A stretch of DNA of 64,000 nucleotides, taken from an uncultured virus (IMG/VR IMGVR_UViG_3300042894_007218) (Duplodnaviria; Heunggongvirae; Uroviricota; Caudoviricetes). Below, one piece after another: positions 60,021-64,000 of this stretch. Where the stretch lies: the IMG/VR virus record IMGVR_UViG_3300042894_007218; one strand, written 5' to 3'. The position numbers and the translations under genes were made by a program. A model generated the notes under the pieces. The model was not told where the DNA came from. It saw only the letters and a list, made by a program, of their open reading frames with translations, and made no database searches. The number at the start of each line of letters is the position of its first letter. The stretch's first letter is position 1.

Positions 60021-60455
60021 ATGATAAAAGAACAAATTAACAAAGATTACATGACAGCGTTCAAATCAAAGAATACTGTTGCCAAAAATTTACTTTCAGT
60101 GGTTAAAGGTGAAATACAAACTCAAGAAAAAAATACTGGAGTTGATAATTTGTCTGATGAAGATGTACTTAAAATTCTTCAAAAGTCTGCTAAGTCTTTA
60201 CGTGAAACTATTTCATCTTTAGAAAAAACACAAACAGGAATGTATTTTTCAAATGATTTAGTTTCAGCAAGAGAAGAATTGAGTATTATTGAATCTTATC
60301 TACCAAAACAAATGTCTAAAGAAGAAGTTACTCAAAAAGTTACCGGTCTTATAAATTCAGGTATCACTCAAATGGGCGCTATTATGAAGGAATTTGCTCA
60401 ACTACCCGCTGATAAAAAAATGGTATCAGAAGTAGTAAAAGAAATCTTAAATTAA
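60021..60455 (+). CDS. GatB/YqeY domain protein
   Basis: I..D...A.K, L.DEDV..IL.K..K, E..IIESYLPKQMS.EE, MG.IMK. Confidence 0.85.
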   Translation: MIKEQINKDYMTAFKSKNTVAKNLLSVVKGEIQTQEKNTGVDNLSDEDVLKILQKSAKSLRETISSLEKTQTGMYFSNDLVSAREELSIIESYLPKQMSKEEVTQKVTGLINSGITQMGAIMKEFAQLPADKKMVSEVVKEILN

Positions 60456-60458
60456 TAT

Positions 60459-61715
60459 ATGTATATCAATTTTACTGAAATTATTGAAAGGTGGGGTAAA
60501 CCTAAAGGTGTCGTCCATATTGGTGCTCACCTTCTTGAAGAAAGAGAGGAATACTTAAAGCACAATCTTACAAATACTATATGGGTAGAGGCAAATCCTA
60601 CTACTTATCAACAAATATTAAATCTTAATATCAGTAACGAAGAAAAAGTTTTTAATCATTGTATCACTGATAAAGATGATGAAACACATACTTTTCATAT
60701 TACTAATAATGGTCAATCCTCATCAATTTTAGATTTACAAAAACACGAAGAATATCATCCGCATATTTTTGTTGTTGATAACATCGAAGTTCAATCTAAA
60801 AGAATGGATACATTAATTAACCAGTATTCTATCGATATTTCAAACTATGATTTTCTTAATTTAGATATACAGGGTGCTGAATTACTTGCTTTGAAGAGCT
60901 TTGGTGATTTAATAAATAATTTCAAATATATTTATACCGAGGTTAATATAAATTATCTTTATAAAGATAATGCGTTAATGTCCGAAATAGATGATTATTT
61001 AAAAAAATATAATTTTATACGAGTGGAAACTGTTATGACTGAAGCTGAATGGGGTGATGCTCTTTATGTTAAAGAAGACATCACTGATAATAAAAAACTA
61101 ATTTTTGATGTTGGCGCTCACCATGGTTTGTTTACTGATGTGTGTAAGGAGAGATTTCCTGATGCTAAAATTATTTCAGTTGAAGCAAATGAAGAACTGT
61201 GGGGTAATCTACATCTTAAGTATGAGTTCGATCCAACTGTAGTTGTTATAAACTATCTGGTTTCGGATGTAACTGCGGATTTTAAAACTTTTCATATTAG
61301 TAATTATGACCAAATTTCAACTGCGTCAGAAGACTGGATTGAAAATTCTAGATTTAGTGGTCACAATTTTGATAAAAAAGTCGGTGTTGTTACTGTAAAT
61401 TTAGACAGTTTAATTAAAATTTTTGGTAAGCCTGATCTAATAAAAATTGATGTAGAAGGTTATGAGTATGAAGTCATTGGTGGTCTAAATCAAAAAGTAG
61501 ATGAAATTTGTTTTGAGTGGGCAGAAGAGCAGTATGAGAAAATAAATTTAACTTGTCAAAAATTACAACAACTCGGATATAAAAATTTTGGATATATACT
61601 TGGAGATGAGTATTTAAAAAGACCTGATACATTCACCACTTGGGAAACTTCGGATTTTCACAACATAGTCAAACCTGAAGAAAAAGATAAATGGGGAATG
61701 ATTTGGGTCAACTAA
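60459..61715 (+). CDS. Tandem FkbM-family methyltransferase (two domains)
   Basis: HIGAH...VEANP...LDIQGAEL and DVGAHHG...VEAN...IKIDVEGYE. Confidence 0.82.
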   Translation: MYINFTEIIERWGKPKGVVHIGAHLLEEREEYLKHNLTNTIWVEANPTTYQQILNLNISNEEKVFNHCITDKDDETHTFHITNNGQSSSILDLQKHEEYHPHIFVVDNIEVQSKRMDTLINQYSIDISNYDFLNLDIQGAELLALKSFGDLINNFKYIYTEVNINYLYKDNALMSEIDDYLKKYNFIRVETVMTEAEWGDALYVKEDITDNKKLIFDVGAHHGLFTDVCKERFPDAKIISVEANEELWGNLHLKYEFDPTVVVINYLVSDVTADFKTFHISNYDQISTASEDWIENSRFSGHNFDKKVGVVTVNLDSLIKIFGKPDLIKIDVEGYEYEVIGGLNQKVDEICFEWAEEQYEKINLTCQKLQQLGYKNFGYILGDEYLKRPDTFTTWETSDFHNIVKPEEKDKWGMIWVN

Positions 61716-61730
61716 AAAATAATTGTTTTT

Positions 61731-62234
61731 ATGTTGAACTATGTTGAGATATTTCAAAAATATGGACAGCCTAATGGAGTGATACACTGTGGTTGTCAAT
61801 TATTTCATATCAGAAAATTATATTTAGCTTATGGTCTGTTTAATACTATATGGATAGAACCTCAACAATTTTTTTATGAATATGGTTTAAATTTGATTAA
61901 CGGTACTGACGAAAAGTTGTATGATTATCAACTAACTTCTGAAAATACGTTATCAAAATTGTTTACACAAGAAAATCTAAATATAGAAAATTATAATTAT
62001 ATACATTTATCTTTACCTATCTATATTAGTGGTTTGGATATTTTCAACTCAAATATAGATAATTTTAAATATATTAGTATAGAGGTAACTCAAAATATCC
62101 AACATGAACACACAGATTTAAGTATTGTCAAAGAATGGTTTGAAAAAAGAAGGTACAAACTAATTGAAAGAAAATCAGTTGATAATGTCGGACAATTGTT
62201 TTTTGTTAAGAAAAGAAAATATACTAAAAAGTAA
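61731..62234 (+). CDS. Degenerate FkbM-like methyltransferase paralog
   Basis: N-terminus mirrors the upstream gene (YGQPNGVIHCG..NTIWIEP, FKYISIEV) but lacks the DxxG.E motif. Confidence 0.5.
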   Translation: MLNYVEIFQKYGQPNGVIHCGCQLFHIRKLYLAYGLFNTIWIEPQQFFYEYGLNLINGTDEKLYDYQLTSENTLSKLFTQENLNIENYNYIHLSLPIYISGLDIFNSNIDNFKYISIEVTQNIQHEHTDLSIVKEWFEKRRYKLIERKSVDNVGQLFFVKKRKYTKK

Positions 62235-62457
62235 ATTCATCAAATCTTGAAATGTGATTTTCACTGACTTTTTCAGGAAGACCTTGATGTTTAGTTTTGG
62301 CAAAATCTCTCAATTTTTTTAAACCCTTTCTTTTCCCTTTTTTCAAAAATGACTTTGCTAATTTCTTTACTGATGGTGATGCATCTTCCATTTCGCCTTT
62401 TGCCCAAGCGTATGCCATGCCCATTAATCTTTGTTGTTTTTTTGAAGTTGATGGCAT
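62224..62457 (-). CDS. Small basic protein (DUF3008-like)
   Basis: MPS.SK.QQR.MG.A, L.DFA.TK..GLPEK. Confidence 0.55.
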   Translation of the reverse strand: MPSTSKKQQRLMGMAYAWAKGEMEDASPSVKKLAKSFLKKGKRKGLKKLRDFAKTKHQGLPEKVSENHISRFDEFTF

Positions 62458-62502
62458 GGAAAGTATAAATTTTTATTATATATAAAAAAATAATTTAATA
62501 TT

Positions 62503-62715
62503 ATGTCAAAATTGAGAAACGGTGGAATTATTTCCAAAGAAGAATATGTAGGTAAAACATTACAAGAAGCAACTAAATACGCAGAAGATGGTGGTTTTGT
62601 TACTAGAATAGTTGAAACAGATGGTCATGCAAAAATGTTAGATATGTCTGTAAATCCAAAAAGATTAAATTTTAGAGTAAATAAAGAATTTGTTACCGAC
62701 GTATTTGGTGGATAA
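62503..62715 (+). CDS. Small protein resembling peptidase inhibitor I78/I13 fold
   Basis: YVG....A.......RIV......M.....RLN..V....V....G. Confidence 0.45.
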   Translation: MSKLRNGGIISKEEYVGKTLQEATKYAEDGGFVTRIVETDGHAKMLDMSVNPKRLNFRVNKEFVTDVFGG

Positions 62716-62731
62716 AATAATTTAATAAAAA

Positions 62732-62763
62732 TTTGGTAGATTTAAAACATTTTACTAATTTTG
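62732..62763 (+). promoter_or_regulatory. Bacteroidota sigma-A promoter for the leader/tRNA operon
   Basis: TTTG (62732-35), 20 nt spacer, TAATTTTG (62756-63). Confidence 0.75.
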
Positions 62764-62820
62764 TATAAGATAATGACAAATAATTAAAAAGAGAGTTTAA
62801 CAATTCAATATATAACAACA

Positions 62821-62922
62821 ATGAGAGCAATTCGCACACATAAGCATTTTAGTAAATCGTCGAAGTGGTTTAGTCACTCCGGTTCGGTACTAAAAGAGTA
62901 TTGCTCAAATTTAGAAGTGTAA
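62821..62922 (+). CDS. Attenuator leader peptide MRAIRTHKHFSKSSKWFSHSGSVLKEYCSNLEV (33 aa, not in the ORF track)
   Basis: ATG at 62821 in A-rich context, TAA at 62920-22; codons 5-20 match the downstream tRNA set. Confidence 0.8.
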   Translation: MRAIRTHKHFSKSSKWFSHSGSVLKEYCSNLEV

Positions 62923-62947
62923 TAACTTATAAAAGACAATATAATTT

Positions 62948-62980
62948 AACCCGAACCTCGAAAGAAGTTCGGGTTTTTTT
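62948..62980 (+). terminator. Intrinsic terminator/attenuator directly upstream of the tRNA array
   Basis: aacccgaac(62948-56)/gttcgggtt(62967-75), GAAA loop, T7 tail; 5' arm also complementary to 62881-87. Confidence 0.88.
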
Positions 62981-62995
62981 ATTAATAAAAAAATT

Positions 62996-63068
62996 GGAAT
63001 GGTGGCAGATTAGGTAATTGCGCTGGACTGAAAATCCAGAGGAGTGGGCTCGATACCCACCCGTTCCA
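62996..63068 (+). tRNA. tRNA-Phe(GAA)
   Basis: Acceptor ggaatgg/ccgttcc; anticodon arm ctgga-ctGAAaa-tccag; no encoded CCA. Confidence 0.9.
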
Positions 63069-63078
63069 CAAAAAATAT

Positions 63079-63154
63079 GATCTCGTAGCTCAGCAGGTTT
63101 TAGAGCACCTCACTTTTAATGAGGGGGTCGTGGGTTCGAGCCCCACCGGGATCA
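63079..63154 (+). tRNA. tRNA-Lys(TTT)
   Basis: Acceptor gatctcg/cgggatc; cctca-ctTTTaa-tgagg; GGTTCGA T loop. Confidence 0.93.
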
Positions 63155-63156
63155 CT

Positions 63157-63229
63157 GTGAATGTAGCTCAATTGGTAGAGCGCTTGATTGTGATTCAAGA
63201 GGTAGCGGGATCGTAACCCGTCATTCACC
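63157..63229 (+). tRNA. tRNA-His(GTG)
   Basis: Acceptor gtgaatg/cattcac, discriminator C; cttga-ttGTGat-tcaag. Confidence 0.9.
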
Positions 63230-63233
63230 AAAT

Positions 63234-63304
63234 ACGTCATACAGACAAGGTGTCGGTCAGGTCTCCAAAACCTCGACGGCTGGGTTCAATTCCTAGATGG
63301 CGTG
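63234..63304 (+). tRNA. tRNA-Trp(CCA)
   Basis: Acceptor acgtcat/atggcgt; aggt-ctCCAaa-acct; ctggg-ttcaatt-cctag; atypical D arm. Confidence 0.8.
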
Positions 63305-63309
63305 CTAAT

Positions 63310-63382
63310 AGTTTCATCGTCTAACCGAATAGGACACACGGCTACGAACCGTGAAGTGAGAGTTTGAGTCTTTCTGAAACTA
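63310..63382 (+). tRNA. tRNA-Arg(ACG)
   Basis: Acceptor agtttca/tgaaact; cacgg-ctACGaa-ccgtg; atypical T loop tttgagt. Confidence 0.8.
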
Positions 63383-63390
63383 CAAAATAA

Positions 63391-63477
63391 GGAGAGTTGG
63401 TAGAGTGGTTGATTACACCGGTCTTGAAAACCGGAAAACTTGAAAGGGTTTCCAGGGTTCGAATCCCTGACTCTCCT
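63391..63477 (+). tRNA. tRNA-Ser(TGA)
   Basis: Acceptor ggagagt/actctcc; ccggt-ctTGAaa-accgg; long variable arm; GGTTCGAATCC. Confidence 0.93.
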
Positions 63478-63488
63478 CTAAATTTTAC

Positions 63489-63569
63489 GGAGAATAAACT
63501 AATCTGGTGATTAGAGCCGCCTGCTAAGCGAGTTGCACGTACATTTGTGTGGGGTTCAATTCCTCTCCG
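63489..63569 (+). tRNA. tRNA-Ser(GCT), apparently with a damaged 3' acceptor strand (possible pseudogene)
   Basis: cgc-ctGCTaa-gcg, long variable arm, gggg-ttcaatt-cctc; 3' side is too short to pair with both the T stem and ggagaat. Confidence 0.6.
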
Positions 63570-63570
63570 C

Positions 63571-63999
63571 TTATACTTTTGGTTTTTCAACAATAAATTC
63601 ACCATTAATATCATATAAACCACTACTTAAGATATAGTCATCGTGTCTTTCGCCAATTACTAACCAGGATATTTCATCAGATGAATTCGAATTAATACAG
63701 TTTATTTGTAGTTTATTTCCAATTACGATGCCTTTTACTGCATCCCATCCAGTCTCATTTGAGGTGAAACATTGGAAGTTTTTATTTAATGCAAGTAATG
63801 TACCTTCTGTCATATTAAATTGCTCATCTAAATTAATTTCAATAAATCCATTTACTAACTGTGATTTACCTCTGTATATGTTATTTGCCTGTGGTGCTTC
63901 TACAAAAGAGTGTAATAAAGTATGTGTTTCTTTTAGTTGTGGAAGAGGGTGGTCAATTTGAAATGTACCCGCTGCCTTTGAAAGTGTTCCATTAACTCT
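63571..63999 (-). CDS. C-terminal part of a tail fibre-type protein (gene starts beyond the window)
   Basis: Open from the window edge: ...GTLSKAAGTFQIDHPL...LLHSFVEAPQANNIYRG...WLVIGERHD, a typical fibre C-terminal module. Confidence 0.65.
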   Translation of the reverse strand, partial: RVNGTLSKAAGTFQIDHPLPQLKETHTLLHSFVEAPQANNIYRGKSQLVNGFIEINLDEQFNMTEGTLLALNKNFQCFTSNETGWDAVKGIVIGNKLQINCINSNSSDEISWLVIGERHDDYILSSGLYDINGEFIVEKPKV

Positions 64000-64000
64000 C

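Follow-up and report, generated by a model that had tools for sequence, protein, structure and literature searches.

Leader-peptide attenuation is a textbook mechanism for operons of amino-acid biosynthesis and a few related ones. The enterobacterial attenuators trpL, hisL, pheL and leuL, and the multivalent thrL and ilvL, combine a short translated leader, regulatory codons, the alternative helices 1:2, 2:3 and 3:4 and an intrinsic terminator. In Escherichia coli, the pheM leader of pheST attenuates the operon of phenylalanyl-tRNA synthetase and responds to the level of charged tRNA. T-box riboswitches, which also precede translation-related genes, bind uncharged tRNA directly: they are untranslated and are characterized by a Stem I specifier loop and a conserved T-box sequence. 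The present work concerns a stretch of 64,000 nucleotides from an uncultured virus of the Caudoviricetes (IMG/VR record IMGVR_UViG_3300042894_007218), called the window in what follows. In its last 1.3 kb, on the + strand, a short open reading frame (ORF), the leader, is followed by a hairpin with seven T residues (62948-62980) and by an array of seven tRNA genes (62996..63574), the first of which, tRNA-Phe, begins 15 nt past the T-run. The analysis, computational throughout, indicates that this element is probably a ribosome-mediated (leader-peptide) transcription attenuator gating the phage tRNA operon. The helices, their conservation and covariation, the match between codons and tRNAs, the geometry and the generality across tRNA blocks were computed directly and, at the level of sequence, the element displays the features of an attenuator that can be tested there, with a protector helix that is plausible. 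No description of leader-peptide attenuation of tRNA genes was found in the literature searched, where subscription journals were thinly covered and absence from print is therefore unproven.

Predicted alternative helices and control codons of the leader

A first reading of the window, made from its sequence alone (the sequence-only reading), had proposed that the leader can fold into one long interrupted hairpin (1:2, the protector), that strand 2 can pair instead with the 5' arm of the terminator (2:3, the antiterminator), and that the terminator (3:4) forms otherwise. All the complementarities put forward for 1:2 are present, namely gagcaat 62825-31/attgctc 62900-06, ttttagta 62847-54/tactaaaa 62888-95, aatcg 62855-59/cggtt 62880-84 and agtg 62864-67/cact 62875-78. 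Both a check of the sequence and RNAfold find GGTTCGG 62881-87 complementary to CCGAACC 62951-57, and the terminator 62948-56/62967-75 runs into seven T residues (62974-80), with C62957 unpaired in its fold, exactly as claimed. The minimum-energy structure of 62800-62985 combines the 1:2 hairpin with the terminator (-40.0 kcal/mol, z -3.65, with none of 200 dinucleotide shuffles as stable). When folded alone, the 1:2 hairpin (62821-62910) reaches -20.6 kcal/mol (z -2.41, 5/200 shuffles as good), the antiterminator (62876-62960) -19.4 kcal/mol (z -4.10, 0/200) and the terminator (62944-62982) -15.5 kcal/mol (z -4.64, 0/200). By these modelled energies, protector and antiterminator are nearly isoenergetic, as a switch should be. 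The proposal had to be amended on two helices. The long hairpin is found in the minimum-energy fold, but its agtg/cact sub-helix is unconserved, and the antiterminator, at about 19 kcal/mol, is longer than the 7 bp that had been noted. Its extensions pair AAA 62893-95 with UUU 62945-47 and GUAUUG.UC 62898-906 with GACAAUAU 62935-42, and its helices enclose an apical hairpin (62910-33) whose loop contains the stop codon of the leader. Each segment of strand 2 has consequently two possible partners, which are strand 1 or the terminator 5' arm for GGTTCGG 62881-87, and strand 1 or 62935-47 for TACTAAAA 62888-95 and GTATTGCTC 62898-906.

The codons of the leader are those read by the tRNAs encoded downstream. 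According to standard wobble rules, the seven tRNAs are cognate to 14 codons, which represent 21.4% of the codons in the 38 ORFs of at least 150 aa of the window (background fraction f = 0.214). Codons 7-19 of the leader (CAT AAG CAT TTT AGT AAA TCG TCG AAG TGG TTT AGT CAC) form an unbroken series of 13 cognate codons, and codon 5 (CGC) is likewise read by the tRNAs of the array. Elsewhere in the 64 kb, the longest such run in any of the six frames has 8 codons, and f^13 is about 2e-9.

The influence of a ribosome on these helices was modelled by assuming that it occupies the RNA from -15 to +12 nt relative to the first base of the codon in the A site. On window RNA cut before strand 4, the probability (P) of 2:3 is 0.85-0.87 with the A site at codons 1-16, 0.75 at codon 17, 0.05 at codon 18 and about 0 at codons 19-27. 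The caveat of the sequence-only reading, that stalls at the last control codons would cover strand 2 and not antiterminate, is borne out by this drop. On RNA cut in the same way, P(2:3) is 0.81-1.00 in 32/32 homologs with the A site at the Trp codon, and 0.00-0.05 in 32/32 five codons beyond it; in this model, a ribosome on the control codons of strand 1 would free strand 2, as had been supposed. The minimum-energy folds keep the inner 1:2 helix as long as the ribosome is at codons 1-6 and no longer contain it from codon 7 onward. This loss and the drop of P(2:3) after codon 17 delimit the codons predicted to be productive to about 7-17 (62839-62871), which coincide with the conserved cognate block. 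The attenuators hisL and trpL of E. coli, taken from NC_000913.3 as positive controls and processed with the same script, form their antiterminators only on RNA cut before strand 4, with P of about 0.5-0.7 for a ribosome on the His or Trp codons and 0 for one close to the stop. As long as strand 3 has not emerged, strand 2 of the phage leader is paired with strand 1 (P 0.60-0.97 in 32/32 homologs). The barrier along the direct path from protector to antiterminator, a heuristic upper bound, is 14.0 kcal/mol in the window, with a mean of 17.4 and values of at least 11 in 30/32 homologs; the lowest are 8.8 kcal/mol in locus L007 and 4.0 in L032. With such a high refolding barrier, the protector can serve as a kinetic trap. 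Because the apical loop of the antiterminator contains the stop codon in the window, a terminating ribosome should in addition hinder this structure.

The following mechanism can be proposed. Transcription would start upstream and the 33-codon leader would be translated. When decoding of codons 7-17 (H K H F S K S S K W F) is fast, the ribosome would cover strand 2 and reach the stop at 62920, or strand 1 would re-pair with strand 2 behind the ribosome; strand 3 would then pair with strand 4, and the terminator (62948-75 plus T7) would halt the polymerase 15 nt before tRNA-Phe. If a charged tRNA for these codons is scarce, the ribosome would stall on strand 1 and leave strand 2 free to pair with the emerging strand 3 in the extended antiterminator (62881-62957). 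The terminator being blocked, the polymerase would read into the Phe, Lys, His, Trp, Arg and Ser tRNA genes. The operon would thus deliver the very tRNAs whose shortage slowed the ribosome, in a negative feedback on decoding capacity. For this scheme we infer a promoter, the translation of the leader, the coupling of ribosome and polymerase and a physiological trigger.

Conservation among relatives and units at other tRNA blocks

With blastn against phage records, the region was recovered from two uncultured huge phages only, LR745206.1 (634,780 bp, 74.0% identity to the region) and LR756502.1 (642,428 bp, 80.7% identity), both with a homologous leader, terminator and tRNA array. The DNA of the window is also present in lake-water metagenomes of several studies. 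At least 38 distinct homolog candidates were collected by pattern scans, both of viral and of metagenome contigs, and by a search with a neighbouring gene of 70 aa. The metagenome scan alone returned at least 119 stretches, mostly chance matches, and at least 16 new distinct true leaders. The homolog set contains 32 of 38 candidates, window included; L080, L094, L132, L142, L147 and L157, which are short ORFs devoid of upstream motif, strand 2 and terminator, were dropped. All 32 distinct homologs, found on huge-phage contigs, possess the ATG, the Trp codon at position 16, strand 2 and a terminator with a T-run. A scan anchored on strand 2 gave 20 loci, 8 of them on known leader contigs and 12 unrelated, and no new variants, so that this family of elements seems confined to this phage group. 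The search with the 70-aa gene gave four loci, two of which (L039 and L042) carry the gene with no leader nearby. Al-Shayeb et al. 2020 (PMC7162821), whose main text contains neither 'attenuat' nor 'leader', predict a Bacteroidetes host for the five genomes above 634 kb.

The start codon is ATG in 32/32 homologs and the frame is open through codon 20 in all of them. The variable positions are codon 5 (R/N/S/F/L), codon 6 (T/K/S), codon 14 (S/N/F/T/H) and codon 15 (K/S/F), where the residues are chemically unlike, yet drawn from a small set. Synonymous changes are frequent (AAA/AAG, TCG/TCA/TCT, AGT/AGC, CGC/CGT). Past codon 19 or so, the frame is unconserved in some lineages, where it is shifted by indels while the nucleotides of strand 2 are kept. 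Taken together, the unlike residues from a small set, the synonymous changes and the shifted C-terminal frame argue for a selection on the codons read and not on the peptide. The tRNAs encoded in the arrays behind all the homologs are restricted to Phe, His, Trp, Lys, Arg-ACG and Ser, often in multiple copies, with the addition of Asn in three loci at a relaxed threshold. The distance from the stop codon (62920-22 in the window) to the terminator 5' arm is 21-38 nt in 32/32 homologs.

The terminators belong to five sequence types, with the 5'-arm cores CCGAAC, CCAAGT, CTCGAAT, CTGAATC and GCTCGAAC. Strand 2 is, in every type, complementary to the 5' arm of that type and is thereby nearly a copy of the terminator 3' arm. 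The mean duplex energy of strand 2 with its own 5' arm is -12.6 kcal/mol (range -9.2 to -15.4), against -5.7 kcal/mol with the arm of another type and -5.0 +/- 2.3 with shuffled strand 2; the own arm is the best partner in 5/5 types. Covariation was measured on an alignment of the 3' half only (A2, produced by MAFFT and fitted to no structure), in which strand 2 of L015, L032 and L105 and the 5' arm of L007 are still misplaced. Over the 7-bp core of 2:3, 93.9% of 212 cells are paired, versus 86.2 +/- 1.0 in shuffles (reached by 0/500) and 4.7-63.2% with slid partners. This core contains 24 double-change cells, versus 6.9 +/- 2.6 in shuffles (0/500), and its covariation score is 0.344 versus 0.211 (0/500); its nine further pair types are not above shuffles, 478/500 of which reach this number. 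On the same alignment, 99.7% of 288 terminator cells are paired and 8/9 pairs are changed on both sides, which no shuffle out of 500 reaches. For the protector, a first full-length MAFFT alignment (A1) of the 32 homologs was used. In the protector, pairing reaches 76.8%, 93.8%, 74.6% and 45.3% of cells for the sub-helices taken 5' to 3' on strand 1, and 76.8% for the whole, versus 33.6-47.6% with slid partners. In the TTTTAGTA/TACTAAAA helix, the changes occur on the 3' side only and are A/G exchanges preserving U-A or U-G. The basal helix has two pairs with double changes, and GCA at codon 3 accompanies ATTGC in 8/8 sequences. The 5' strand of the protector is also constrained by coding and by the search patterns. 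Covariation across homologs, suggested by the sequence-only reading as a check, thus speaks for 2:3 (A2 and duplex matrix) and for the terminator, and is one-sided or weak for 1:2. On sequence comparison the protector appears plausible, with weak support from covariation. Across the relatives, a competition of three helices linked to the control codons of strand 1 is supported by the alignments and the folding models.

Comparable units are not restricted to this array. Six genomes, namely LR745206.1 (61 Rfam tRNA matches) and five more large records, were mapped by an automatic search for a terminator followed by tRNAs and preceded by an ORF of 15-55 codons, with neutral tie-break rules. In these related genomes, 29 further units made of a leader and a terminator were found before or inside other tRNA blocks. 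The leader MTTMNLNMNMNLTVVLNTLCIRR... precedes Asn/Ile/Leu/Val/Thr/Met/Arg-TCT (and Cys) tRNAs, ...VNPQPQDQDP... precedes Pro/Asp/Gln tRNAs, and ...YYYEE... precedes Glu/Tyr tRNAs. Similarly, ...AIIGGGAGA... is followed by Ile-TAT/Gly/Ala tRNAs, MKTTMTITISRSRSSRSLPLVV (with SRSRSSRS) by Ser/Arg tRNAs, and MRTTTQYQQQQQINPTD, within an array, by three tRNA-Gln genes. The fit between leader and array was quantified over 36 pairs as the matches of leader residues 2-22 to the array over background. The excess of cognate residues is +0.281 with the own array versus -0.010 with other arrays; the own array ranks first in 16/36 pairs, and 0/20,000 permutations reach the observed sum. The seven leader classes are unrelated in sequence, and the one property they have in common is the agreement of their encoded residues with the tRNAs that follow. 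In 28/29 units, the cognate block has on its immediate 3' side a strand with complementarity to the 5' arm of the terminator; the automatic test found no 2:3 pairing in L197. The mean z of this duplex over the 29 units is -2.7 relative to shuffles, and z is below -2 in 18/29. As a separate observation, internal attenuator-like Gln units (L185 1933-1984, L194 1786-1837, L201 2137-2188, L182 44638-44686 and L188 3628-3697) consist of a 16-23-codon ORF with a run of 4-7 Gln and a terminator directly before tRNA-Gln, and show no upstream promoter motif.

The first tRNA starts 9-31 nt past the T-run in 27/31 loci, which leaves no space for a separate promoter; the arrays would thus depend on read-through of the terminator. 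Upstream of the leader, the motif TTWG-N17-23-TAnnTTTG is found within 120 nt 5' of the ATG in 25/30 homologs with enough upstream DNA, versus 1.3% of random 120-mers of the window, and, of the 27 leaders bearing TAnnTTTG, all except one have its end 38-58 nt before the ATG. This putative promoter motif resembles the -33/-7 promoter consensus of Bacteroidota, which would fit the predicted host phylum and the missing Shine-Dalgarno sequence. A scan for sigma-70 promoters was uninformative (14 sites vs 11.3 expected). A second motif, ATATATA in the window, ends 7 nt before the start codon; ATATAT occurs in 30/30 homologs, 5-8 nt before the ATG in 28/30, and may be a promoter element, a processing signal or a context for translation initiation. 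In relatives, it also stands immediately before a tRNA-Met that lacks a leader. Apart from the leaders, whose ATG it precedes, AAAAGGGA..TTTAATATATA also occurs about 20 nt before a leaderless tRNA-Met in relatives (L183 ~1540-1575, L195 ~1460-1492, L182 ~1840-1870), a Tyr/Glu leader being found after the tRNA-Met; a role as phage promoter or as processing signal can be envisaged. RNA libraries of three studies yielded contigs that span 62746-62954 at a depth of 3-5; RNA ends are not visible and carry-over of DNA is possible, so that they allow no inference on termination or read-through. In run X16, a lake metatranscriptome, a 370-nt contig of a relative (window 62820-63072) has a leader, with 8 differences in 54 nt, connected to tRNA-Phe through a diverged stretch of 128 nt, and fits read-through RNA and DNA carry-over equally.

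Some tRNA genes are unusual. In the window, those of tRNA-Trp-CCA and tRNA-Ser-GCT are below the Rfam thresholds (tRNA-Sec model, 25 and 33.1 bits) and are missed by default ARAGORN. In relatives (L001 3344-3609, L002 2325-2594, L005, L008, L018 and others), tRNA-Lys genes are 82-89 nt long, far above a standard class I tRNA, which could reflect a long variable arm or an insert, and multiple copies stand side by side in the arrays. ARAGORN also reports four-base anticodons (ggaa, acat, gtag; eight-base loops) in L011 2589-2659, L015 1916-1990, L184, L193 and L182 (cluster at record 406869-408120). These genes could encode frameshift-reading tRNAs or be prediction artefacts. A tRNA with anticodon CTA (labelled Pyl by ARAGORN) and, at a relaxed threshold, one with TTA were observed in L191 (G002:C1:120000-121900) at ~1631 and in L015 at +364 from the leader ATG. 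They are possible stop-codon suppressors and as such a hint of recoding. The tRNA region itself is located just downstream of a YqeY-like protein gene (60021-60452; Pfam PF09424, E 2e-21) and of a gene for a protein with two FkbM-type methyltransferase stretches (60459-61712; PF05050, E 1.6e-29). The 70-aa gene (62503-62715), a conserved neighbour of the leader in relatives, has no Pfam match. The coordinates of the features are collected in Table 1.

Table 1. Features of the putative attenuator and of the tRNA array, in window coordinates
Feature	Position	Strand	Basis
Promoter-like motif: TTTG 62732-35, 20 nt, TAATTTTG 62756-63	62732..62763	+	regex across homologs
ATATATA motif, ends 7 nt before start codon	62808..62814	+	conservation
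Leader ORF, 33 codons + stop, peptide MRAIRTHKHFSKSSKWFSHSGSVLKEYCSNLEV	62821..62922	+	ORF listing
Strand 1 (protector 5' side): 62825-31, 62847-54, 62855-59; 62864-67 unconserved	62825..62867	+	folds, homolog pairing
Control-codon block, codons 5-19	62833..62877	+	cognate-codon run, ribosome-position profiles
Strand 2	62880..62906	+	duplex matrix, pair counts, folds
Small apical hairpin, loop with leader stop codon 62920-22	62910..62933	+	folds
Strand 3: GACAATAT 62935-42 and TTT 62945-47 (extension); CCGAACC 62951-57; terminator 5' arm 62948-56	62935..62957	+	pair counts, folds
Strand 4: terminator 3' arm 62967-75 and T7 62974-80	62967..62980	+	folds, homolog pairing
tRNA-Phe-GAA	62996-63069	+	default ARAGORN, Rfam
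tRNA-Lys-TTT	63079-63155	+	default ARAGORN, Rfam
tRNA-His-GTG	63157-63229	+	default ARAGORN, Rfam
tRNA-Trp-CCA, non-canonical	~63234-63305	+	relaxed ARAGORN; weak Rfam tRNA-clan match, 25 bits
tRNA-Arg-ACG	63310-63383	+	default ARAGORN, Rfam
tRNA-Ser-TGA	63391-63478	+	default ARAGORN, Rfam
tRNA-Ser-GCT, non-canonical	~63495-63574	+	relaxed ARAGORN; weak Rfam tRNA-clan match, 33.1 bits

Points against attenuation and rival explanations

Several results weigh against the interpretation as an attenuator. At equilibrium, the terminator of the full-length RNA keeps P 0.95-0.97 at all 34 ribosome positions in the window, and with a block at the Trp codon P is at least 0.90 in 28/32 homologs, being lower in L003, L015, L052 and L065. 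A terminator that stays dominant with strand 1 blocked had been named beforehand as refuting the proposal and, formally, it was observed; hisL and trpL nevertheless behave identically, with P of at least 0.9 for their terminators at every ribosome position on full-length RNA. Since these textbook attenuators share this dominance, the equilibrium test neither discriminates nor refutes. It implies that the switch must be kinetic, which is not reliably computable. In free RNA cut before strand 4, P(2:3) has a mean of 0.50 (range 0.00-1.00) and 2:3 is preferred in about half of the homologs, so that the protector works only if it is a kinetic trap. The covariation of 2:3 is uneven as well. On A2, four pairs have a change on both sides, a number reached by 209/500 shuffles, and the 24 double-change cells all belong to six sequences of a single lineage, possibly reflecting few evolutionary events. 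On A1, the score of 2:3 is 0.094 versus 0.106 in shuffles and is reached by 458/500; this null result is attributed to MAFFT having set one lineage in different registers on the two strands, and A1 understates the terminator too (91.3% paired). The protector has four pairs with a change on both sides, which 405/500 shuffles reach, and its best helix, TTTTAGTA/TACTAAAA, has no double changes. The match between codons and tRNAs is not perfect. A Thr codon occupies position 6 in 18/32 homologs and Asn codons are common too, with no tRNA-Thr in the homolog arrays and tRNA-Asn in three loci only, at the relaxed threshold. In the leader of L041/L081, KHSTFSKSTSWFSTT, Lys and His are replaced by Ser and Thr while the array keeps its Lys/His tRNAs. 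The invariance of codons 10-12 and 16-17 is partly imposed by the search patterns, though L041, found via the 70-aa gene and not by pattern, still keeps these codons. Finally, no Shine-Dalgarno sequence precedes the leader ATG, the model needs a tight coupling of transcription and translation in the presumed Bacteroidota host, and leader translation, termination at 62980 and read-through are predictions only.

These points bear differently on the competing explanations. The strength of the terminator (-15.5 kcal/mol), which dominates every equilibrium fold, and the conserved N-terminal half of the peptide would also be expected from an ordinary small gene, or an upstream transcript, ending at its own terminator. 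The ORF would then encode a micropeptide or be functionless, the tRNAs would be independent and the 2:3 complementarity incidental. In agreement with this, the terminator of L007, L019 and L020 is separated from the first confident tRNA by about 1 kb that contains an ORF. Such an explanation is nonetheless judged very unlikely. It is contradicted by the lack of space for a promoter in 27/31 loci, by the co-variation of strand 2 with the terminator arms in five types, and by a C-terminal frame that is unconserved though its nucleotides are kept. It accounts neither for the chemically unlike residues that stay within the tRNA-cognate set nor for the 29 unrelated leaders at other tRNA blocks obeying the same codon logic. 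An even less probable explanation, to which hardly any credit is given, is an RNA switch independent of translation, sensing uncharged tRNA in a T-box-like manner, a protein or a small RNA, with an incidental ORF. The alternative helices exist regardless of translation, the absence of a Shine-Dalgarno sequence would be natural in this case, and a conserved UGGU could in principle pair with the tRNA 3' end, which is speculation. However, no Rfam family, T-box included, was matched in 62720-62990 at E up to 10, except a sub-threshold Thr_leader (RF00506; 22.9 bits vs a cut-off of 55, E 0.2, 62902-62983, mainly over the terminator), and the larger interval 62000-64000 was likewise free of T-box matches at the same E. 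The invariant ATG and the synonymous third-position changes do not fit such a switch, and only decoding explains why seven unrelated leader classes share nothing but the match between residues and tRNAs. The evidence on the phage element therefore points to decoding, and not to T-box binding of tRNA. A separate candidate, in which the leader would be a degenerate tRNA with GGTTCGG resembling a T-arm, was rejected, as 62820-62990 contains no tRNA-clan match at E up to 10.

A third explanation keeps attenuation itself and only alters the role of the protector. In this two-state variant, the ribosome would be the sole protector and 1:2 would have no regulatory role. Untranslated RNA would read through, and an unstalled ribosome would lead to the terminator by masking strand 2 or by sitting at the stop codon inside the antiterminator. 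The position of this stop codon in the apical loop and the constant spacing of 21-38 nt between stop and arm are in line with it, as are the weak covariation of 1:2 and the preference of free cut RNA for 2:3 in about half of the HKFSW homologs and most of the 29 other leaders. It is nevertheless considered rather unlikely: in 32/32 homologs strand 2 would already be paired with strand 1 before strand 3 emerges, the barrier out of the 1:2 state is at least 11 kcal/mol in 30/32, 93.8% of the cells of the TTTTAGTA/TACTAAAA helix are paired and its changes preserve U-A or U-G, and GCA at codon 3 accompanies ATTGC in 8/8 sequences. The preferred interpretation is an attenuator with three competing helices, in which 1:2 would protect the terminator.

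A broader and more tentative interpretation, to be regarded as possible but doubtful, is that this attenuator is one unit of a genome-wide decoding sensor acting per amino acid, in which every tRNA block of these huge phages would be preceded by a leader written in the codons of that block. Only the matching replacement tRNAs would be supplied, which would constitute both an inducible counter-defence and a self-limiting supply. If so, the phage would detect the host tRNAs that have turned limiting during infection, possibly through codon-usage mismatch, host shut-off or host anticodon-nuclease defences cleaving Lys, His, Arg, Ser or Trp tRNAs, and would monitor decoding capacity codon by codon. 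This would explain the control of the 30-70 tRNA genes of huge phages. The composition of a leader would predict that of its array, giving a simple annotation rule for metagenomes, and multi-codon sensors could serve as natural reporters of tRNA availability. The induction of phage tRNAs on demand, upon depletion of host tRNAs or an attack on them, thereby becomes a testable hypothesis.

Comparison with known attenuators

The phage element appears to be the textbook attenuation device applied, in phages, to the regulation of tRNA genes themselves, with a leader that would test exactly the tRNAs encoded downstream. It shares with the enterobacterial attenuators the short leader, presumably translated, the regulatory codons, an antiterminator alternating with an intrinsic terminator and, by prediction, the protector helix. 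Its behaviour in the folding script parallels that of hisL and trpL, with a terminator dominant at equilibrium and an antiterminator restricted to cut RNA with the ribosome at the control codons. Its mixed control codons resemble those of the multivalent thr and ilv leaders; there is no sequence kinship with the enterobacterial leaders, as seen from the sub-threshold score of Thr_leader. Like pheM, it would be a case of leader-peptide attenuation of a component of the translation apparatus, but pheM controls a synthetase, in response to a single amino acid and in a cellular genome. Like T-box riboswitches, it would sense the status of tRNAs and choose between terminator and antiterminator in front of translation-related genes; unlike them, it would do so through a translated leader. 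The differences from the enterobacterial attenuators concern what is regulated, what is sampled and the occurrence in sets. The regulated genes encode tRNAs and not biosynthetic enzymes, so that the output would directly replenish the sensed molecule. The leader samples six amino acids and has no Shine-Dalgarno sequence. Finally, the element is phage-encoded and belongs to a set of differently spelled units in one genome, some of them located inside the tRNA arrays.

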